64,000 bases of DNA from Escherichia coli (lineage in GTDB: Bacteria; Pseudomonadota; Gammaproteobacteria; Enterobacterales; Enterobacteriaceae). This document shows positions 9,676 through 37,077 of this stretch, piece after piece. The first letter of the stretch is position 1. Each line of letters begins with the position of its first letter. The stretch lies in the NCBI RefSeq assembly GCF_003334305.1, contig NZ_QOWS01000003.1; one strand, 5' to 3'. A program made the translations under genes and the position numbers. The notes below the pieces were generated by a model, which was not told the origin of the DNA, made no database searches, and saw only the letters and a list, made by a program, of their open reading frames with translations.

Positions 9676-12600
9676 CTACAAACCAGTGGCAAAGGTAAGG
9701 CGCATTTTTACAATGCCTTTGTCTACAAGTCCTTTCTGTTGCTCAGGTGTTAACACGGGTTCCTGATTTTGGCTCAAAGCCTTATAAATCGGTTGCCAAT
9801 CCGCCAGTGTTAAGCCTGTATCATTTAATATTTGCTCACCTTGACTCTGCCATTTGGCCTGGGTGCTTTCACACACCTGTTGAAGTTCTCTGACACCCAA
9901 ATTGCTCACATCCTCCAGAGTCAACGCTGCTGGTTCCGCTTGCTTTTGAGAAGCCAATAGCGGTTTTAATAACGGCAGCCAGCTGTTTACCTGTGCGATG
10001 GAGTTGCGTCTTACTTGGTTTAGACGCTCTTCAATTTTAAGTAGCTGGCCTTGAATCGGTGTAAGTTGACCGCGTGCCGGTTTTAAAAGCTCTTCTGGTA
10101 AATCCCGTAACGATGAAAACTGCCCATTGCGCAAACTGTTTTGCATACTTTGACGCTTGCTCTCTGCATCACTGGGGAGATCGGCAATAGCATCTTCAAT
10201 GAGCTGTAATTTCATTACCAGTTTTGGTAGCTCTGCAATGTCATCGGCGAACTGATACTCAGCCGTGGCGCTACTAAGCCATTCTTGCAGTTGTTGTGCA
10301 CGTAGTTTTTGCTCTGTGAGGTTATTAACCAGCTTACTAAATCGTTCTTTGCAGTTGCGGTAGCTGGACAAAATATGCCCCTGAATCTCCGCTATCGGCA
10401 ACTGTTGATCATTGTGCAGGTTTAAACCCACTTCTTGCGCTAAGGCTGAAAGCTTGTCATGCGCTCTACCTAAATCGAGTTTACGCAGGTAATGCAGTAA
10501 GGTATCGCTATCTGCTTGCTGCTCTTTTCGGCCAGTGGCACTGCTGGTATCGTCTTTTAACGCTCCATCTAAAATATGACCTATGGTGCGCAGCGTGTTG
10601 GTGTACAGACGTTTCGGAAAATTCGTCAGCGGGGCACACTCTGTTTCAACATCTATGATTAAATCAACGAGTCGGTTGTTGATACGCTCAGCGCTGCACT
10701 CAACAAACTCGGCAAATAAACAGGCCTGTTCAATCCGTTGATAAAGCGAGGTCGTTTTGTCTTCTAAGCTGAGAATATGGGCATCTTTTAGCATAGGCCT
10801 GGAACTATTAAGCGGTTTAACCTTTGCTACCAGCTCCAGCACTTCAGCGCGTTTGTGGATAAGCCCTGCCAATACTTTCGTGTCGTTGGCCTCGACCATA
10901 TCAGCCAATTGTTCTTCTTGCTGTTTGAGCACGTTAAATAGCGATTGTGCTTTTTCCAGCTGCTCTTTAGCTTCCACGGTGACGAAACCCAGCTTATTTT
11001 TACCCAGTGGCGCGAACATTTCATTAATGCGTGCATAACCATACACGCGGCTCATGACTTCCACATTGGCTGCATAGCTGCCCATATCGTTACCACGGAA
11101 CCAGTTTTGCGCTTCTCTAATGGCATTTTCTAAGCGGGAGCGCGGGTAGTGCTCCCAAATTGCCTGTTTTTCTGTTGGATTGGTTAAAGTGAGTAAGTTC
11201 AGCTCTCCACACCACCACATCCAGTCATTAAACACGCCTTTGGCGGTAACACTCGTTTCAGCCACATAGGCGAAATAAAACTGTTGCTTAAAGCCTTCGA
11301 ATTGCCACTTGTGCTTTTTATTAGGGTGAGCAATACGGGCTAAAAATAATGGGATCTGCGCCTGGCTTCGCTGCACATTATTAAGTTCAGTAAATAGCCC
11401 GGCATGTTCATCGGCAGTGTAACCTTTGGCAATATAGCTGCCCGGCACCTTAAGTTTATCCAACAAGCTGCTCAGCTCATTCACTGGCACGCCGTGTTGC
11501 TGCTGTAAATCGAGAATGCCATTTAACTCAGGGTGAGCAATGGCCAGCTGATACCAGCCTTTAAACAACAGGTCTCGGTCATTCGGTGATAATTTACCAT
11601 CTACCTTTAACGGCCAGGCAATTAAACCGCGCTGCTGCAAACGCTGGCGCCACTTGTGAATGGCATCCGTGGCAAAGGTTGTCAGGGCATGCAGCTTGTT
11701 TTTGAATTTCGCGGTAAAGCTGTCGGCAGTTAAATTCACGCCGTGCAACTGACATGCTGCCAAACTTAAGCCAATACGCTCTAACTGGTCTGCTTCGCTT
11801 GGGTTGACATAATGCAGCAGTATCGCATCACGCAACTCATTTCTTTCATCCAGTCGGCTGTATTGCTCCATGAGATGTGCAGAAGCAGTTAACGCTAATA
11901 CTGGCGTGCGACCATTTTGGTGGCTGTGGTTTGCCGCAAAGGTGTGAAGATTGTTCAGCTCAATTAGGTTGCTGACCCAGGCAAACAAGGCTTTACCTTC
12001 TGGGTGAAGCTTAAATCCATCCAGGGTAAGTAAACCACCCTGGCGGCCACGGGGCTCGGTTAAAATGGCCAAAGGTGCATCGTCGCTGCCCGCTTTATTA
12101 CTCAGCAAGTTTTCATCATAGGTCCAGTTGTTATCAAGTAATCTCACAAAGCCCGTTACACGGGCTAATGCCTTGATGAGCGGCTTCTGGCTACTTTGTT
12201 TGCTAAGTTCACTCATTGCCTGTTCATGAGCGTCGCCCATGGCGGGATCTTTAAAAATCAGTGAGTTTTGCTGGGCACTGCGATAGCGCAAATCCAGGCG
12301 CAGTAACATCGCCACACTGGGGCCAATATGCGTTGCTTCGCTGGCGTCCAGTTCGGTAGTTTCACCCACTAGCTTGTGCCATAAGGCATCGGCAGCGAAT
12401 TCAATCGCTGGGTGGTCATACAGCAAGCTGAGTAAGTATTTAAACTCACCTTTTGACAGAGGTAGTAATACCGCGCCTTTATCGCCGCTTGCGGCTTGTT
12501 CTTTAATTGAAAAAGTACGCAGGTTATCCAGCAAAGTATCTAAGTTCAGCGCTTGATCTACTGCAGGGTAGTACCATTCATCTTTATCGCGGCGGAATTT

Positions 12601-13962
12601 GGCTTGCTCCAGGGCTTGTCGGCACTGTAGGCGGTCAATGCTCAGTTTGCGGTAATGAGCGGCTATGGGTTCCAGATCTTCGTTTTTCAGCGCCAGCAAT
12701 TCTGTGGCATAGCCCATTTCAGCTAAGCGCACGGGTAATTGGCCGTAGAGCAAACTACGACATTCGGTCAATAGTGCCTGGTCGCGAGTTTGAATGCCTT
12801 CTATCGCGCCTTTATCCAGCACATGCCTGGCTACGCGGCCAGAGCCTGCCAGCACAGCTTCAAATAAATCGCCCACATCCTTGATACTGCGGCCTGCTTG
12901 TTGGTATTGGCTCAGCACTGCATCCACATTAGCCATGACCACGTTAAACCAACCGAAGTTGGCACCACTCATGGCGTATGCAGCTTCCACTAAACCAGCA
13001 GGGTAATTAAAACCCAGCTTGCCGTCTTTTAAGAGGCTTGCCACATAGTCTGATACATCGGCAAAGGCATTATGCTCAAGTTCCACTAACTCAAAGCGGC
13101 GTGCGACCGATTGAATTTCGCGCAATTGCTGGCCAAGCAGTGGTGAACACAGCGCTACATAGCGCAACCATGGAAGTTTACGGCGAGGGTCTTCCTCTTT
13201 AATTGCTTTACCAATCAGGCGAATGGCCTGGCCATCGAGGCGTTTATTTTGTTCATCTTCCAGGCCAAAGGTGGCGGCTTCTGCAACGGTTTCCAGCTCA
13301 TCCAGCACCACCAACATATACTGCACGCCAAAGCTCTTTAATACTTTATAGGCGGCTTGCACCAAACTGACTACCAGCGTTTGGTCAGTATAGAGGTCTT
13401 CTTCGCTGTGGTTGGCGTTCAGCTGTAAGGCATCTGCTAACAGTTCAGATTTAAAGCCAAATGGCATTAAGCGTTCATAGGCTTGTTTGGCAATTTCACT
13501 TTGAATCGATCCATCAAAGGTTTGGGTGGCCAGTGGTAATAGCGCCTGATATAAACCAAAAGCAAACCAGTTATCCGAGTTTTGATAATCTGATGCCACT
13601 TGCGAGTAGCGAATGTAGAGCGCCAGGTATTTGTCTTGCGTGTCGCGATTAAACAGCTGCTTATCGTGCAGTTGGCCTTGTTCGTCGCGGACAAACCAGC
13701 CCCTTGAACAGTCGTTAATTTGTGCAACCAATTCATGGCCTAAACGTGATTTACCCCGACCCCATTCGGCTTCGACGGCAAACACATGGGCAAAGCGATC
13801 ATCGTCGTGATCCACCGTATGCAAAAAGGTTTGAAAGCGTTTAAAAAAGCGGCTCTGGCCCACTAACGGGTCGCGAGGTGGATAATCTGATACGCCCGTC
13901 GCCGCCCAGCGATGTTGTTTTGCCAGGCTATCAACCATCTGTTCGTTTAATTCAAAACTCAT
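9676..13962 (-). CDS. Giant protein (1428 aa) with an N-terminal KAP-type P-loop NTPase domain and about 1200 aa of helical extension
   Basis: Walker A AEWGRGKSRL (the GxWGxGKS pattern of KAP NTPases) near residue 65 and Walker B MLVVLDELE about 150 residues later; the remainder is long and uninterrupted. ATGA overlap with the upstream gene. Confidence 0.85.
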   Translation of the reverse strand: MSFELNEQMVDSLAKQHRWAATGVSDYPPRDPLVGQSRFFKRFQTFLHTVDHDDDRFAHVFAVEAEWGRGKSRLGHELVAQINDCSRGWFVRDEQGQLHDKQLFNRDTQDKYLALYIRYSQVASDYQNSDNWFAFGLYQALLPLATQTFDGSIQSEIAKQAYERLMPFGFKSELLADALQLNANHSEEDLYTDQTLVVSLVQAAYKVLKSFGVQYMLVVLDELETVAEAATFGLEDEQNKRLDGQAIRLIGKAIKEEDPRRKLPWLRYVALCSPLLGQQLREIQSVARRFELVELEHNAFADVSDYVASLLKDGKLGFNYPAGLVEAAYAMSGANFGWFNVVMANVDAVLSQYQQAGRSIKDVGDLFEAVLAGSGRVARHVLDKGAIEGIQTRDQALLTECRSLLYGQLPVRLAEMGYATELLALKNEDLEPIAAHYRKLSIDRLQCRQALEQAKFRRDKDEWYYPAVDQALNLDTLLDNLRTFSIKEQAASGDKGAVLLPLSKGEFKYLLSLLYDHPAIEFAADALWHKLVGETTELDASEATHIGPSVAMLLRLDLRYRSAQQNSLIFKDPAMGDAHEQAMSELSKQSSQKPLIKALARVTGFVRLLDNNWTYDENLLSNKAGSDDAPLAILTEPRGRQGGLLTLDGFKLHPEGKALFAWVSNLIELNNLHTFAANHSHQNGRTPVLALTASAHLMEQYSRLDERNELRDAILLHYVNPSEADQLERIGLSLAACQLHGVNLTADSFTAKFKNKLHALTTFATDAIHKWRQRLQQRGLIAWPLKVDGKLSPNDRDLLFKGWYQLAIAHPELNGILDLQQQHGVPVNELSSLLDKLKVPGSYIAKGYTADEHAGLFTELNNVQRSQAQIPLFLARIAHPNKKHKWQFEGFKQQFYFAYVAETSVTAKGVFNDWMWWCGELNLLTLTNPTEKQAIWEHYPRSRLENAIREAQNWFRGNDMGSYAANVEVMSRVYGYARINEMFAPLGKNKLGFVTVEAKEQLEKAQSLFNVLKQQEEQLADMVEANDTKVLAGLIHKRAEVLELVAKVKPLNSSRPMLKDAHILSLEDKTTSLYQRIEQACLFAEFVECSAERINNRLVDLIIDVETECAPLTNFPKRLYTNTLRTIGHILDGALKDDTSSATGRKEQQADSDTLLHYLRKLDLGRAHDKLSALAQEVGLNLHNDQQLPIAEIQGHILSSYRNCKERFSKLVNNLTEQKLRAQQLQEWLSSATAEYQFADDIAELPKLVMKLQLIEDAIADLPSDAESKRQSMQNSLRNGQFSSLRDLPEELLKPARGQLTPIQGQLLKIEERLNQVRRNSIAQVNSWLPLLKPLLASQKQAEPAALTLEDVSNLGVRELQQVCESTQAKWQSQGEQILNDTGLTLADWQPIYKALSQNQEPVLTPEQQKGLVDKGIVKMRLTFATGL

Positions 13963-28324: not shown

Positions 28325-28927
28325 ATGAAGAATAAGGCTGATAACAAAAAAAGGAACTTCCTGACCCATAGTGAAATCGAATCACTCCTTAAAGCAGCAA
28401 ATACCGGGCCTCATGCAGCACGTAATTATTGTCTGACTTTGCTTTGTTTTATTCATGGTTTCCGGGCGAGTGAAATTTGTCGATTGAGGATTTCGGATAT
28501 TGATCTTAAGGCAAAGTGTATATATATCCATCGATTAAAAAAAGGCTTTTCAACAACGCATCCGCTATTGAACAAAGAAGTTCAGGCTTTAAAAAACTGG
28601 TTGAGTATCCGTACTTCGTACCCGCATGCTGAGAGCGAGTGGGTATTTTTATCTCGTAAGGGAAATCCGCTTTCTCGGCAACAGTTTTACCATATTATCT
28701 CGACTTCCGGTGGTAATGCCGGGTTGTCACTGGAGATTCATCCGCACATGTTACGCCATTCGTGTGGTTTTGCTTTGGCGAATATGGGAATAGATACGCG
28801 ACTTATCCAGGATTATCTTGGGCATCGCAATATTCGTCATACTGTCTGGTATACCGCCAGCAATGCAGGGCGTTTTTACGGCATCTGGGATAGAGCCAGA
28901 GGACGACAGCGTCACGCTGTTTTATAG
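28325..28927 (+). CDS. fimB: Type 1 fimbriae switch recombinase FimB (tyrosine recombinase)
   Basis: MKNKADNKKRNFLTHSEIESLL ... HMLRHSCGFALANMGIDTRLIQDYLGHRNIRHTVWYT (200 aa). Confidence 0.95.
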   Translation: MKNKADNKKRNFLTHSEIESLLKAANTGPHAARNYCLTLLCFIHGFRASEICRLRISDIDLKAKCIYIHRLKKGFSTTHPLLNKEVQALKNWLSIRTSYPHAESEWVFLSRKGNPLSRQQFYHIISTSGGNAGLSLEIHPHMLRHSCGFALANMGIDTRLIQDYLGHRNIRHTVWYTASNAGRFYGIWDRARGRQRHAVL

Positions 28928-29404: not shown

Positions 29405-30001
29405 GTGAGTAAACGTCGTTATCTTACCGGTAAAGAAGTTCAGGCCATGATGCAGGCGGTTTGTTACGGGGCAACGGGAGCCAGAGATTATTGTCTTATT
29501 CTGTTGGCATATCGGCATGGGATGCGTATTAGTGAACTGCTTGATCTGCATTATCAGGATCTTGACCTTAATGAAGGTCGAATAAATATTCGCCGACTGA
29601 AGAACGGATTTTCTACCGTTCACCCGTTACGTTTTGATGAGCGTGAAGCCGTGGAACGCTGGACCCAGGAACGTGCTAACTGGAAAGGCGCTGACCGGAC
29701 CGACGCTATATTTATTTCTCGCCGCGGGAGTCGGCTTTCTCGCCAGCAGGCCTATCGCATTATTCGCGATGCCGGTATTGAAGCTGGAACCGTAACGCAG
29801 ACTCATCCTCATATGTTAAGGCATGCTTGTGGTTATGAACTGGCGGAGCGTGGTGCCGATACCCGTTTAATTCAGGATTATCTCGGGCATCGAAATATTC
29901 GCCATACTGTACGTTATACCGCCAGTAATGCTGCTCGTTTTGCCGGACTATGGGAAAGAAATAATCTCATAAACGAAAAATTAAAAAGAGAAGAGGTTTG
30001 A
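29405..30001 (+). CDS. fimE: Type 1 fimbriae switch recombinase FimE (tyrosine recombinase)
   Basis: MSKRRYLTGKEVQAMMQAV ... HMLRHACGYELAERGADTRLIQDYLGHRNIRHTVRYT (198 aa). Confidence 0.95.
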   Translation: MSKRRYLTGKEVQAMMQAVCYGATGARDYCLILLAYRHGMRISELLDLHYQDLDLNEGRINIRRLKNGFSTVHPLRFDEREAVERWTQERANWKGADRTDAIFISRRGSRLSRQQAYRIIRDAGIEAGTVTQTHPHMLRHACGYELAERGADTRLIQDYLGHRNIRHTVRYTASNAARFAGLWERNNLINEKLKREEV

Positions 30002-30048
30002 TTTAACTCATTGATAATAAAGTTAAAAAACAAATAAATACAAGACAA

Positions 30049-30057
30049 TTGGGGCCA
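30049..30057. repeat. fim switch left inverted repeat (IRL)
   Basis: TTGGGGCCA, reverse complement of the repeat at 30354-30362. Confidence 0.85.
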
Positions 30058-30067
30058 AACTGTCCAT

Positions 30068-30097
30068 ATCATAAATAAGTTACGTATTTTTTCTCAA
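30068..30097 (-). promoter_or_regulatory. fimA promoter inside the switch, reading towards fimE (OFF phase)
   Basis: On the minus strand: -35 TTGAGA (complement of 30092-30097), 18-bp spacer, -10 TATGAT (complement of 30068-30073); no comparable element faces fimA on the plus strand. Confidence 0.55.
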
Positions 30098-30353
30098 GCA
30101 TAAAAATATTAAAAAACGACAAAAAGCATCCAACTGTTTGATATGTAAATTATTTCTCTTGTAAATTAATTTCACATCACCTCCGCTATATGTAAAGCTA
30201 ACGTTTCTGTGGCTCGACGCATCTTCCTCATTCTTCTCTCCAAAAACCACCTCATGCAATATAAAAATCTATAAATAAAGATAACAATAGAATATTAAGC
30301 CAGCAAATAAACTGAAAAAGTTTGTGCGCGATGCTTTCCTCTATGAGTCAAAA

Positions 30354-30362
30354 TGGCCCCAA
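30354..30362. repeat. fim switch right inverted repeat (IRR)
   Basis: TGGCCCCAA, reverse complement of the repeat at 30049-30057. Confidence 0.85.
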
Positions 30363-30481
30363 ATGTTTCATCTTTTGGGGGAAAACTGTGCAGTGTTGGC
30401 AGTCAAACTCGTTGACAAAACAAAGTGTACAGAACGACTGCCCATGTCGATTTAGAAATAGTTTTTTTAAAGGAAAGCAGC

Positions 30482-31030
30482 ATGAAAATTAAAACTCTGG
30501 CAATCGTTGTTCTGTCGGCTCTGTCCCTCAGTTCCGCAGCGGCTCTGGCCGATACTACGACGGTAAATGGTGGGACCGTTCACTTTAAAGGGGAAGTTGT
30601 TAACGCCGCTTGCGCAGTTGATGCAGGCTCTGTTGATCAAACCGTTCAGTTGGGCCAGGTTCGTACCGCTAGCCTGAAGCAGGCTGGAGCAACCAGCTCT
30701 GCCGTTGGTTTTAACATTCAGCTGAATGATTGCGATACCACTGTTGCCACAAAAGCCGCTGTTGCCTTCTTAGGTACGGCAATTGATGCTACGCATACTG
30801 ATGTACTGGCTCTGCAGAGTTCAGCTGCGGGTAGCGCAACAAACGTTGGTGTGCAGATCCTGGACAGAACGGGTGCTGCGCTGGCGCTGGACGGTGCGAC
30901 ATTTAGTTCAGAAACAACCCTGAATAACGGAACCAACACCATTCCGTTCCAGGCGCGTTATTTTGCAACCGGTGCCGCAACCCCTGGCGCAGCTAATGCG
31001 GATGCGACCTTCAAGGTTCAGTATCAATAA
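30482..31030 (+). CDS. fimA: Type 1 fimbrial major subunit FimA
   Basis: [23 protein letters not shown] signal peptide followed by a pilin domain; ATG at 30482 inside ORF 30425-31030. Confidence 0.95.
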
Positions 31031-31094: not shown

Positions 31095-31634
31095 ATGAAA
31101 AGGAAGAGATTATTTCTATTAGCGTCGTTGCTGCCAATGTTTGCTCTGGCCGGAAATAAATGGAATACCACGTTGCCCGGCGGAAATATGCAATTTCAGG
31201 GCGTCATTATTGCGGAAACTTGCCGGATTGAAGCCGGTGATAAACAAATGACGGTCAATATGGGGCAAATCAGCAGTAACCGGTTTCATGCGGTTGGGGA
31301 AGATAGCGCACCGGTGCCTTTTGTTATTCATTTACGGGAATGTAGCACGGTGGTGAGTGAACATGTGGGTGTGGCGTTTTACGGTGTCGCGGATGGTAAA
31401 AATCCAGATGTGCTTTCCGTTGGAGAGGGGCCAGGGATAGCCACCAATATTGGCGTAGCGTTGTTTGATGATGAAGGAAACCTCGTACCGATTAATCGTC
31501 CTCCAGCAAACTGGAAACGGCTTTACTCAGGCTCTACTTCGCTACATTTCATCGCCAAATATCGTGCTACCGGGCGTCGGGTTACTGGCGGCATCGCCAA
31601 TGCACAGGCCTGGTTCTCTTTAACCTATCAGTAA
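31095..31634 (+). CDS. fimI: Fimbrial protein FimI
   Basis: [19 protein letters not shown] signal peptide; the frame is open back to 30963, so the start is ambiguous. Confidence 0.85.
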
Positions 31635-31670
31635 TTGTTCAGCAGATAATGTGATAACAGGAACAGGACA

Positions 31671-32396
31671 GTGAGTAATAAAAACGTCAATGTAAGGAAA
31701 TCGCAGGAAATAACATTCTGCTTGCTGGCAGGTATCCTGATGTTCATGGCAATGATGGTTGCCGGACGCGCTGAAGCGGGAGTGGCCTTAGGTGCGACTC
31801 GCGTAATTTATCCGGCAGGGCAAAAACAAGTGCAACTTGCCGTGACAAATAATGATGAAAATAGTACCTATTTAATTCAATCATGGGTGGAAAATGCCGA
31901 TGGTGTAAAGGATGGTCGTTTTATCGTGACGCCTCCTCTGTTTGCGATGAAGGGAAAAAGAGAGAATACCTTGCGTATTCTTGATGCAACTAATAACCAA
32001 TTGCCACAGGATCGGGAAAGTTTATTCTGGATGAATGTTAAAGCGATTCCGTCAATGGATAAATCAAAATTGACTGAGAATACGCTACAGCTCGCAATTA
32101 TCAGCCGCATTAAACTGTACTATCGTCCGGCTAAATTAGCGTTGCCACCCGATCAGGCCGCAGAAAAATTAAGATTTCGTCGTAGCGCGAATTCCCTGAC
32201 GCTGATTAACCCGACACCCTATTACCTGACGGTAACAGAGTTGAATGCCGGAACCCGGGTTCTTGAAAATGCATTGGTGCCTCCAATGGGCGAAAGCACG
32301 GTTAAATTGCCTTCTGATGCAGGAAGCAATATTACTTACCGAACAATAAATGATTATGGCGCACTTACCCCCAAAATGACGGGCGTAATGGAATAA
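31671..32396 (+). CDS. fimC: Periplasmic pilus chaperone FimC
   Basis: 241-aa PapD-like chaperone with signal peptide; position and sequence match remembered FimC. Confidence 0.93.
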   Translation: MSNKNVNVRKSQEITFCLLAGILMFMAMMVAGRAEAGVALGATRVIYPAGQKQVQLAVTNNDENSTYLIQSWVENADGVKDGRFIVTPPLFAMKGKRENTLRILDATNNQLPQDRESLFWMNVKAIPSMDKSKLTENTLQLAIISRIKLYYRPAKLALPPDQAAEKLRFRRSANSLTLINPTPYYLTVTELNAGTRVLENALVPPMGESTVKLPSDAGSNITYRTINDYGALTPKMTGVME

Positions 32397-32462
32397 CGCA
32401 GGGGGAATTTTTCGCCTGAATAAAAAGAATTGACTGCCGGGTGATTTTAAACCGGAGGAATA

Positions 32463-35099
32463 ATGTCATATCTGAATTTAAGACTTTACCAGCGAAACAC
32501 ACAATGCTTGCATATTCGTAAGCATCGTTTGGCTGGTTTTTTTGTCCGGCTCTTTGTCGCCTGTGCTTTTGCCGCACAGACACCTTTGTCATCTGCCGAA
32601 CTCTATTTTAATCCGCGCTTTTTAGCGGATGATCCCCAGGCTGTGGCTGATTTATCGCGTTTTGAAAATGGGCAAGAATTACCGCCAGGGACGTATCGTG
32701 TCGATATCTATTTGAATAATGGTTATATGGCAACGCGTGATGTCACATTTAATACGGGCGACAGCGAACAAGGGATTGTTCCCTGCCTGACACGCGCGCA
32801 ACTTGCCAGTATGGGGCTGAATACGGCTTCTGTCTCCGGTATGAATCTGCTGGCGGATGATGCCTGCGTGCCATTAACCTCAATAATCCATGACGCTACT
32901 GCGCATTTAGATGTTGGTCAGCAGCGACTCAACCTGACGATCCCTCAGGCATTTATGAGTAATCGCGCGCGTGGTTATATTCCTCCTGAGTTATGGGATC
33001 CCGGTATTAATGCCGGATTGCTCAATTATAATTTCAGCGGAAATAGTGTACAGAATCGGATTGGGGGTAACAGCCATTATGCATATTTAAACCTACAGAG
33101 TGGGTTAAATATTGGTGCGTGGCGTTTACGCGACAATACCACCTGGAGTTATAACCGTAGCGACAGATCATCAGGTAGCAAAAATAAATGGCAGCATATC
33201 AATACCTGGCTTGAGCGAGACATAATACCGTTACGTTCCCGGCTGACGCTGGGTGATGGTTATACTCAGGGCGATATTTTCGATGGTATTAACTTTCGCG
33301 GCGCACAATTGGCCTCAGATGACAATATGTTACCCGATAGCCAAAGAGGATTTGCCCCGGTGATCCACGGTATTGCTCGTGGTACTGCACAGGTCACTAT
33401 TAAACAAAATGGGTATGACATTTATAATAGTACGGTGCCACCGGGGCCTTTTACCATCAACGATATCTATGCCGCAGGTAATAGTGGTGACTTGCAGGTA
33501 ACGATCAAAGAGGCTGACGGCAGCACGCAGATTTTTACCGTACCCTATTCGTCAGTCCCGCTTTTGCAACGTGAAGGGCATACTCGTTATTCCATTACGG
33601 CAGGAGAATACCGTAGTGGAAATGCGCAGCAGGAAAAACCCCGCTTTTTCCAGAGTACATTACTCCACGGCCTTCCGGCTGGCTGGACAATATATGGTGG
33701 AACGCAACTGGCGGATCGTTATCGTGCTTTTAATTTCGGTATCGGGAAAAACATGGGGGCACTGGGCGCTCTGTCTGTGGATATGACGCAGGCTAATTCC
33801 ACACTTCCCGATGACAGTCAGCATGACGGACAATCGGTGCGTTTTCTCTATAACAAATCGCTCAATGAGTCAGGCACGAATATTCAGTTAGTGGGTTACC
33901 GTTATTCGACCAGCGGATATTTTAATTTCGCTGATACAACATACAGTCGAATGAATGGCTACAACATCGAAACACAGGACGGTGTTATTCAGGTTAAGCC
34001 GAAATTCACCGACTATTACAACCTCGCTTATAACAAACGCGGGAAATTACAACTCACCGTTACTCAGCAACTCGGGCGCACATCAACACTGTATTTGAGT
34101 GGTAGCCATCAAACTTATTGGGGAACGAGTAATGTCGATGAGCAATTCCAGGCTGGTTTAAATACTGCGTTCGAAGATATCAACTGGACGCTCAGCTATA
34201 GCCTGACGAAAAACGCCTGGCAAAAAGGACGGGATCAGATGTTAGCGCTTAACGTCAATATTCCTTTCAGCCACTGGCTGCGTTCTGACAGTAAATCTCA
34301 GTGGCGACATGCCAGTGCCAGCTACAGCATGTCACACGATCTCAACGGTCGGATGACCAATCTGGCTGGTGTATACGGTACGTTGCTGGAAGACAACAAC
34401 CTCAGCTATAGCGTGCAAACCGGCTATGCCGGGGGAGGCGATGGTAATAGCGGAAGCACAGGCTACACCACGCTGAATTATCGCGGTGGTTACGGCAATG
34501 CCAATATCGGTTACAGCCATAGCGATGATATTAAGCAGCTCTATTACGGAGTCAGCGGTGGGGTACTGGCTCATGCCAATGGCGTAACGCTGGGGCAGCC
34601 GTTAAACGATACGGTGGTACTTGTTAAAGCGCCTGGCGCAAAAGATGCAAAAGTCGAAAACCAGACGGGGGTGCGTACCGACTGGCGCGGTTATGCCGTG
34701 CTGCCTTATGCCACCGAATATCGGGAAAACAGAGTGGCGCTGGATACCAATACCCTGGCTGATAACGTCGATTTAGATAACGCGGTCGCTAACGTTGTTC
34801 CCACTCGTGGGGCGATCGTGCGAGCAGAGTTTAAAGCGCGCGTTGGGATAAAACTGCTCATGACGCTAACTCACAATAATAAGCCGCTGCCGTTTGGGGC
34901 GATGGTGACATCAGAGAGTAGCCAGAGTAGCGGCATTGTTGCGGATAATGGTCAGGTTTACCTCAGCGGAATGCCTCTAGCGGGAAAAGTTCAGGTGAAA
35001 TGGGGAGAAGAGGAAAATGCTCATTGTGTCGCCAATTATCAACTGCCACCAGAGAGTCAGCAGCAGTTATTAACCCAGCTATCAGCTGAATGTCGTTAA
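32463..35099 (+). CDS. fimD: Outer-membrane usher FimD
   Basis: 878-aa usher-family protein, in the expected place in the fim cluster. Confidence 0.95.
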   Translation: MSYLNLRLYQRNTQCLHIRKHRLAGFFVRLFVACAFAAQTPLSSAELYFNPRFLADDPQAVADLSRFENGQELPPGTYRVDIYLNNGYMATRDVTFNTGDSEQGIVPCLTRAQLASMGLNTASVSGMNLLADDACVPLTSIIHDATAHLDVGQQRLNLTIPQAFMSNRARGYIPPELWDPGINAGLLNYNFSGNSVQNRIGGNSHYAYLNLQSGLNIGAWRLRDNTTWSYNRSDRSSGSKNKWQHINTWLERDIIPLRSRLTLGDGYTQGDIFDGINFRGAQLASDDNMLPDSQRGFAPVIHGIARGTAQVTIKQNGYDIYNSTVPPGPFTINDIYAAGNSGDLQVTIKEADGSTQIFTVPYSSVPLLQREGHTRYSITAGEYRSGNAQQEKPRFFQSTLLHGLPAGWTIYGGTQLADRYRAFNFGIGKNMGALGALSVDMTQANSTLPDDSQHDGQSVRFLYNKSLNESGTNIQLVGYRYSTSGYFNFADTTYSRMNGYNIETQDGVIQVKPKFTDYYNLAYNKRGKLQLTVTQQLGRTSTLYLSGSHQTYWGTSNVDEQFQAGLNTAFEDINWTLSYSLTKNAWQKGRDQMLALNVNIPFSHWLRSDSKSQWRHASASYSMSHDLNGRMTNLAGVYGTLLEDNNLSYSVQTGYAGGGDGNSGSTGYTTLNYRGGYGNANIGYSHSDDIKQLYYGVSGGVLAHANGVTLGQPLNDTVVLVKAPGAKDAKVENQTGVRTDWRGYAVLPYATEYRENRVALDTNTLADNVDLDNAVANVVPTRGAIVRAEFKARVGIKLLMTLTHNNKPLPFGAMVTSESSQSSGIVADNGQVYLSGMPLAGKVQVKWGEEENAHCVANYQLPPESQQQLLTQLSAECR

Positions 35100-35108
35100 G
35101 GGGGCGTG

Positions 35109-35639
35109 ATGAGAAACAAACCTTTTTATCTTCTGTGCGCTTTTTTGTGGCTGGCGGTGAGTCACGCTTTGGCTGCGGATAGCACGATTACTATCCGCGG
35201 CTATGTCAGGGATAACGGCTGTAGTGTGGCCGCTGAATCAACCAATTTTACTGTTGATCTGATGGAAAACGCGGCGAAGCAATTTAACGACATTGGCGCG
35301 ACGACTCCTGTTGTTCCATTTCGTATTTTGCTGTCACCCTGTGGTAATGCCGTTTCTGCCGTAAAAGTTGGGTTTACCGGCGTTGCAGATAGCCACAATG
35401 CCAATCTGCTTGCACTTGAAAATACGGTGTCAGCGGCTTCGGGACTGGGAATACAGCTTCTGAATGAGCAGCAAAATCAAATACCCCTTAATGCTCCATC
35501 GTCCGCGCTTTCGTGGACGACCCTGACGCCGGGTAAACCAAATACGCTGAATTTTTACGCCCGGCTAATGGCGACACAGGTGCCTGTCACTGCAGGGCAT
35601 ATCAATGCCACGGCTACCTTCACTCTTGAATATCAGTAA
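35109..35639 (+). CDS. fimF: Fimbrial minor subunit FimF
   Basis: [22 protein letters not shown] signal peptide, pilin fold, terminal YQ. Confidence 0.92.
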
Positions 35640-35651
35640 CTGGAGATGCTC

Positions 35652-36155
35652 ATGAAATGGTGCAAACGTGGGTATGTATTGGCGGCAATATTGGCGCTCG
35701 CAAGTGCGACGATACAGGCAGCCGATGTCACCATCACGGTGAACGGTAAGGTCGTCGCCAAACCGTGCACAGTTTCCACCACCAATGCCACGGTTGATCT
35801 CGGCGATCTTTATTCTTTCAGTCTGATGTCTGCCGGGGCGGCATCGGCCTGGCATGATGTTGCGCTTGAGTTGACTAATTGTCCGGTGGGAACGTCGAGG
35901 GTCACTGCCAGCTTCAGCGGGGCAGCCGACAGTACCGGATATTATAAAAACCAGGGGACCGCGCAAAACATCCAGTTAGAGCTACAGGATGACAGTGGCA
36001 ACACATTGAATACTGGCGCAACCAAAACAGTTCAGGTGGATGATTCCTCACAATCAGCGCACTTCCCGTTACAGGTCAGAGTATTGACGGTAAATGGCGG
36101 AGCCACTCAGGGAACCATTCAGGCAGTGATTAGCATCACCTATACCTACAGCTGA
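35652..36155 (+). CDS. fimG: Fimbrial minor subunit FimG
   Basis: MKWCKRGYVLAAILALASATIQA signal peptide; about 167 aa. Confidence 0.92.
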   Translation: MKWCKRGYVLAAILALASATIQAADVTITVNGKVVAKPCTVSTTNATVDLGDLYSFSLMSAGAASAWHDVALELTNCPVGTSRVTASFSGAADSTGYYKNQGTAQNIQLELQDDSGNTLNTGATKTVQVDDSSQSAHFPLQVRVLTVNGGATQGTIQAVISITYTYS

Positions 36156-36174
36156 ACCCGAAGAGATGATTGTA

Positions 36175-37077
36175 ATGAAACGAGTTATTACCCTGTTTGC
36201 TGTACTGCTGATGGGCTGGTCGGTAAATGCCTGGTCATTCGCCTGTAAAACCGCCAATGGTACCGCTATCCCTATTGGCGGTGGCAGCGCTAATGTTTAT
36301 GTAAACCTTGCGCCTGCCGTGAATGTGGGGCAAAACCTGGTCGTAGATCTTTCGACGCAAATCTTTTGCCATAACGATTATCCGGAAACCATTACAGACT
36401 ATGTCACACTGCAACGAGGCTCGGCTTATGGCGGCGTGTTATCTAATTTTTCCGGGACCGTAAAATATAGTGGCAGTAGCTATCCATTTCCGACCACCAG
36501 CGAAACGCCGCGGGTTGTTTATAATTCGAGAACGGATAAGCCGTGGCCGGTGGCGCTTTATTTGACGCCTGTGAGCAGTGCGGGCGGGGTGGCGATTAAA
36601 GCTGGCTCATTAATTGCCGTGCTTATTTTGCGACAGACCAACAACTATAACAGCGATGATTTCCAGTTTGTGTGGAATATTTACGCCAATAATGATGTGG
36701 TGGTGCCTACTGGCGGCTGCGATGTTTCTGCTCGTGATGTCACCGTTACTCTGCCGGACTACCCTGGTTCAGTGCCAATTCCTCTTACCGTTTATTGTGC
36801 GAAAAGCCAAAACCTGGGGTATTACCTCTCCGGCACAACCGCAGATGCGGGCAACTCGATTTTCACCAATACCGCGTCGTTTTCACCAGCGCAGGGCGTC
36901 GGCGTACAGTTGACGCGCAACGGTACGATTATTCCAGCGAATAACACGGTATCGTTAGGAGCAGTAGGGACTTCGGCGGTAAGTCTGGGATTAACGGCAA
37001 ATTACGCACGTACCGGAGGGCAGGTGACTGCAGGGAATGTGCAATCGATTATTGGCGTGACTTTTGTTTATCAATAA
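36175..37077 (+). CDS. fimH: Mannose-binding fimbrial adhesin FimH
   Basis: MKRVITLFAVLLMGWSVNAWSFACKTANGTAIPIGGGSANVYVNLAP lectin-domain N-terminus; 300 aa. Confidence 0.95.
   Translation: MKRVITLFAVLLMGWSVNAWSFACKTANGTAIPIGGGSANVYVNLAPAVNVGQNLVVDLSTQIFCHNDYPETITDYVTLQRGSAYGGVLSNFSGTVKYSGSSYPFPTTSETPRVVYNSRTDKPWPVALYLTPVSSAGGVAIKAGSLIAVLILRQTNNYNSDDFQFVWNIYANNDVVVPTGGCDVSARDVTVTLPDYPGSVPIPLTVYCAKSQNLGYYLSGTTADAGNSIFTNTASFSPAQGVGVQLTRNGTIIPANNTVSLGAVGTSAVSLGLTANYARTGGQVTAGNVQSIIGVTFVYQ

Follow-up and report, generated by a model that had tools for sequence, protein, structure and literature searches.

The invertible element of the Escherichia coli fim locus was reportedly described by Abraham et al. 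in 1985. According to reviews of the system (PMC2647292, PMC9993118), this element, fimS, is 314 bp long, is bounded by 9-bp inverted repeats, is located between fimE and fimA and contains the promoter PfimA. In the ON orientation PfimA faces fimA, whereas in the OFF orientation the two are disconnected. The literature also places a Rho-dependent terminator within fimS, which acts on fimE in the OFF orientation only. The best point of comparison for the locus described here is the switch of E. coli K-12 MG1655, alongside the locked-OFF switches of O157:H7 and Shigella flexneri.

The stretch of DNA that was analysed in full, referred to here as the window, comprises 64 kb of E. coli sequence. 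The segment at 30049-30362 is almost certainly E. coli fimS, the invertible element of 314 bp that carries the promoter of the type 1 fimbriae genes, here in phase OFF. The features that bear on this assignment are as follows, in window coordinates.

28325..28927, plus strand: fimB, encoding a tyrosine recombinase for inversion of fimS in either direction; 200 aa, 100% identical to K-12 MG1655 FimB.
29405..30001, plus strand: fimE, encoding a tyrosine recombinase whose inversion of fimS runs mainly from ON to OFF (role from the literature); 198 aa, 100% identical to K-12 FimE, and annotated in relatives.
30049..30362, unstranded: fimS, assigned from its length and repeats; aligned collinearly with K-12 MG1655, from which it differs by 5 internal SNPs, and OFF by three in-silico assays.
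30049..30057, plus strand: IRL, the left 9-bp inverted repeat TTGGGGCCA, a recombination site; the identical left flank of strain H15 stops exactly at 30057.
30068..30097, minus strand: PfimA (predicted), with a -35 hexamer TTGAGA at 30097-30092, an 18-nt spacer and a -10 hexamer TATGAT at 30073-30068; sequence the same as in K-12.
30081..30086, unstranded: SnaBI site TACGTA, from a published orientation assay; 161+442 bp, the OFF pattern.
30166..30303, plus strand (fimE sense): C-rich, G-poor tract, candidate basis of the fimE Rho-dependent terminator; C/G ratio of 2.4-4.0 in 78-nt windows.
30327..30330, unstranded: BstUI site CGCG, from a published orientation assay; 539+188 bp, the OFF pattern.
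30354..30362, plus strand: IRR, the right 9-bp inverted repeat TGGCCCCAA; the right flank of H15 picks up again at 30354.
30482..31030, plus strand: fimA, the major type 1 fimbrial subunit, from its open reading frame and annotation in relatives; promoterless in the present orientation.
31095..37077, plus strand: fimI, fimC, fimD, fimF, fimG and fimH, from their open reading frames; the rest of the operon, driven by PfimA when the switch is ON.

Anatomy of the switch and its promoter

The gene order is fimB, fimE, fimS, fimA, so that both recombinase genes lie immediately upstream of the switch, which is housed in the 480-bp intergenic region between fimE and fimA. In relatives, fimB is annotated as the type 1 fimbria switch DNA invertase FimB. 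The reading frames of all fim structural genes are open and have the expected length, and the fimI-fimH region is collinear, at 99.8%, with that of the annotated strain 2013C-3181. The limits of fimS are set by two perfect 9-bp inverted repeats, IRL (TTGGGGCCA) and its reverse complement IRR (TGGCCCCAA), which enclose an inner segment of 296 bp (30058-30353) and bring the total to 314 bp. This 9-mer occurs only twice in the 64-kb window, as IRL and IRR, and the positions of the repeats place the element exactly where the original prediction had put it, at 30049-30362. An Rfam scan of the fim regulatory region returned no match; elsewhere in the window, a minus-strand segment at 57277-57319 matches the ES036 (CssrF) sRNA with a score just above the gathering score (39.9 versus 37.6 bits).

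A consensus scan of 29900-30520 identified three sigma-70-like sites. The best of these, matching the consensus at 10 of 12 positions, is the minus-strand TTGAGA-18-TATGAT arrangement next to IRL, at 30097..30068, where the original prediction had located a promoter directed towards fimE. A distance of 10 bp separates the end of its -10 hexamer from IRL, and the predicted PfimA reads toward fimE and away from fimA. A search for this exact pattern gave a single match in the window and was negative in all 100 shuffles. The assignment of the hexamers rests on the consensus scan together with the position of the promoter at the end of fimS that faces fimA once the element is flipped. The earlier description of this promoter as the only convincing one was borne out in so far as it is the best match, but was slightly overstated, as there are two weaker 9/12 sites in the same scan, one on the minus strand (30287..30258) and one on the plus strand (30138..30167). 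Shuffled sequence yielded a mean of 1.4 promoter-like matches (sd 1.1) in 29900-30520, against the three found, and the 9/12 sites are near the chance expectation for DNA with a G+C content of 33%.

Olsen and Klemm (1994) are said to have mapped the fimA transcription start by primer extension. In the open-access literature, the promoter is described schematically, and a mapped fimA start with hexamers at nucleotide level was not found there. Between IRR and fimA, the window carries a perfect -35 hexamer, TTGACA, at 30413-30418, where K-12 MG1655 has TTTACA. A fimS-independent promoter at this position was considered and rejected: there is no -10 partner 16-18 nt after the hexamer, and the scan found no promoter there. 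The difference from K-12 is probably a neutral SNP.

On the other side of fimB, a tRNA-Leu(CAA) gene, leuX, at 2214-2298 is followed by a plus-strand open reading frame of 372 aa and then by a minus-strand cluster of approximately 20 kb (2646-23829 for this open reading frame and the cluster together) that resembles a defence island. The cluster encodes a Ser/Thr kinase (best PADLOC match mad6), a HerA-like ATPase, a type I-like specificity subunit and methyltransferase, McrC- and McrB-like proteins and an HNH nuclease, with all NCBIfam matches in the island falling under the curated cut-offs. Four further open reading frames, one of them encoding 1428 aa (9676-13962), have no NCBIfam or PADLOC match. 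The island is present at 100% identity in strains A7, A28, DETEC-E601 and H15, and its place is taken by a BREX-1 system in strain 2013C-3181, the best match to the fim region.

Orientation of the recorded switch

Three published orientation assays were applied in silico to the window and to a copy in which 30058-30353 had been reverse-complemented. In the first, primer OL20 matches at 29790 and OL4 at 30516, defining a 727-bp amplicon with one BstUI site, which is cut into 539+188 bp in the window and 293+434 bp in the flipped copy; the published fragments, from K-12 populations carrying a fimA-lacZ reporter, are 539+187 bp for OFF and 433+293 bp for ON. In the second, amplification with Inv-1 and Inv-2 followed by SnaBI digestion gives 161+442 bp for the window and 405+198 bp for the flipped copy, set against published values of 440+161 bp (OFF) and 403+198 bp (ON). 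The offsets of 1-2 bp fit small strain-to-strain length differences in the DNA flanking fimS, which itself has the published length of 314 bp.

The third assay is an orientation-specific PCR that uses a primer inside fimS (primer 1) with either a primer downstream of fimA (primer 2) or a primer in fimE (primer 3). From the window, primers 1 and 2 give a product of 884 bp, which is the published size of the OFF product, and primers 1 and 3 give no ON product in silico. From the flipped copy, a product arises only with primers 1 and 3, and is 412 bp long compared with the 394 bp published for ON; this minor discrepancy is confined to the ON side and is unexplained. Primer 1 (CCGCGATGCTTTCCTCTATG) lies at 30326-30345 with a single 5'-base mismatch in this strain, G for C at 30326, and the BstUI site CGCG at 30327-30330 is kept.

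The orientation-specific PCR and restriction digests that had been proposed as a check of phase OFF thus return, as in-silico assays, the published OFF result in all three cases, and flipping the inner segment turns each into its ON counterpart. The opposite assignment, in which the switch is actually ON and the real fimA promoter is another plus-strand element, could draw on the 9/12 site at 30138..30167, which faces fimA. That site is at chance level and lies approximately 315 bp from the fimA ATG, however, and the arrangement in the window is the same as in K-12 MG1655, for which a published study found higher fimA transcript levels together with a 296-bp inversion relative to the reference. 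As the three assays give OFF for the window and ON for the flipped sequence, this assignment is refuted, and we give it practically no credence. Nothing in the sequence of the window contradicts the phase-OFF reading.

The region is present in 4719 complete E. coli genomes. The arrangement of the window (OFF) is matched over its full length in 4452 of these (∼94%) and the flipped version (ON) in 246 (∼5%), while approximately 21 match neither over the full length owing to deletions or insertions. One record, H25, carries an IS1 near fimE; an IS1 within fimE has been reported for W3110. In a published survey, fimS inversion was found in 64 of 193 ciprofloxacin-resistant clinical isolates. Among the 246 flipped records, that of strain H15 (NZ_CP010178.1) is especially close to the window: it is 100% identical and colinear up to 30057, has the inner part reversed and is colinear again from 30354, and it shares the 25-kb island that separates leuX from fimB, again at 100% identity. 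As a comparison of genome records, this shows that fimS inverts in nature within an essentially identical local background, and that the breakpoints fall inside the 9-bp repeats. Because H15 has identical flanks and the same island but an inverted fimS, the recorded orientation is a state of the culture rather than a property of the strain.

How much the record says about the sequenced cells is a separate matter. The original prediction took the sequenced molecule or consensus to stand for fimbriae-OFF cells; the OFF orientation stands, but a consensus shows the majority orientation only and not the ON fraction of the culture. A more radical version of this concern is that the culture was a substantial mixture of ON and OFF cells, so that the orientation chosen by the assembler was perhaps not even that of the majority. 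The literature gives a high frequency for FimB-mediated inversion (∼1e-2 per cell per generation), and low-frequency inversion of fimS has been seen in the sequencing reads of cultures. Against this, FimE-mediated ON-to-OFF inversion is reported to dominate FimB-mediated OFF-to-ON inversion when fimE is active, the 4452 OFF records among the 4719 genomes are consistent with this dominance, and the majority path is what assemblers normally report. We regard such a mixture as unlikely.

Predicted operation of the switch and its effect on fimE

The model outlined here draws on the literature for inversion chemistry, promoter activity and Rho-dependent termination, and on sequence for the anatomy, the orientation, the open reading frames and the relatives with the opposite orientation. 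In the present orientation, PfimA would fire away from fimA and leave the fimAICDFGH operon without an attached promoter. FimB or FimE would cut and rejoin the DNA within the 9-bp repeats, flipping the inner 296 bp, after which PfimA would adjoin IRR, face fimA and drive fimAICDFGH, the ON state. While the switch is OFF, the Rho-dependent terminator would shorten and destabilise the fimE mRNA, and the lowered level of FimE may allow FimB to turn some cells back ON.

A candidate for this terminator is visible on the fimE sense strand. Within 30166-30303 the ratio of C to G reaches 4.0, and the 78 nt at 30178-30255 contain 27 C and 9 G. This tract likely provides the sequence basis of the fimE Rho-dependent terminator. 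A scan for intrinsic terminators across 29900-30520 found none, which fits Rho-dependent rather than intrinsic termination of fimE.

The geometry of the OFF orientation also allows for a second effect on fimE. PfimA lies 10 bp from IRL and faces fimE, the stop codon of which is 47 bp past IRL, so PfimA might drive an antisense RNA over IRL into the 3' end of fimE that adds to the Rho-dependent terminator in lowering FimE. Published work on the orientational control of fimE reportedly credits the terminator and not PfimA, and we consider the antisense contribution very unlikely. If it were true, the PfimA antisense RNA would make the OFF state easier to leave.

Comparison with invertible and locked switches

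An OFF record could also represent a fixed genotype rather than a phase, as in O157:H7 or Shigella flexneri, where the switch is genetically locked. The window does show OFF, and there are locked-OFF lineages: Shigella has a nonsense mutation in fimB and was OFF in all 129 genomes examined, and an O157:H7 record (H41) matches the window in the OFF orientation with a shorter fimS region (495 versus 511 bases). In the window, however, fimS has its full 314 bp with both repeats perfect, FimB and FimE match the functional K-12 proteins at every residue, and H15, with identical flanks and the same island, carries fimS inverted. It is thus extremely unlikely that the switch is locked. With the recombinases, the repeats and the structural genes all intact, the switch of the window should be invertible.

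The relevance of this locus lies mainly in its correct annotation, as the default, non-fimbriate orientation of a complete locus that should be able to switch ON. For annotation pipelines or transcript mapping that use the window as a reference, PfimA would appear on the 'wrong' strand, and the orientation in the assembly is best read as a reflection of the sequenced culture and not as a heritable difference between strains.

Among the known systems, the locked-OFF switches of O157:H7 and Shigella flexneri resemble the window in being OFF in the genome record and differ from it in their lesions: a variant of the O157:H7 type (a 16-bp deletion in fimS) or of the Shigella type (a fimB nonsense mutation) was rejected for the window, where fimS is full length and fimB and fimE are intact. 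H15 differs in phase at fimS, as its inner 296 bp is inverted so that PfimA faces fimA, making it a phase-ON record. Relative to K-12 MG1655, the window is collinear across the whole region, with 5 SNPs inside fimS, 2 between IRR and fimA and a different fimA allele, and with no differences in the repeats or the promoter hexamers. The two switches share the 314-bp length, the 9-bp repeats, the position between fimE and fimA, the hexamers with their spacer, the orientation recorded for MG1655 and identical FimB and FimE proteins. The fim switch of the window is in its commonest recorded state, a case of textbook phase variation.
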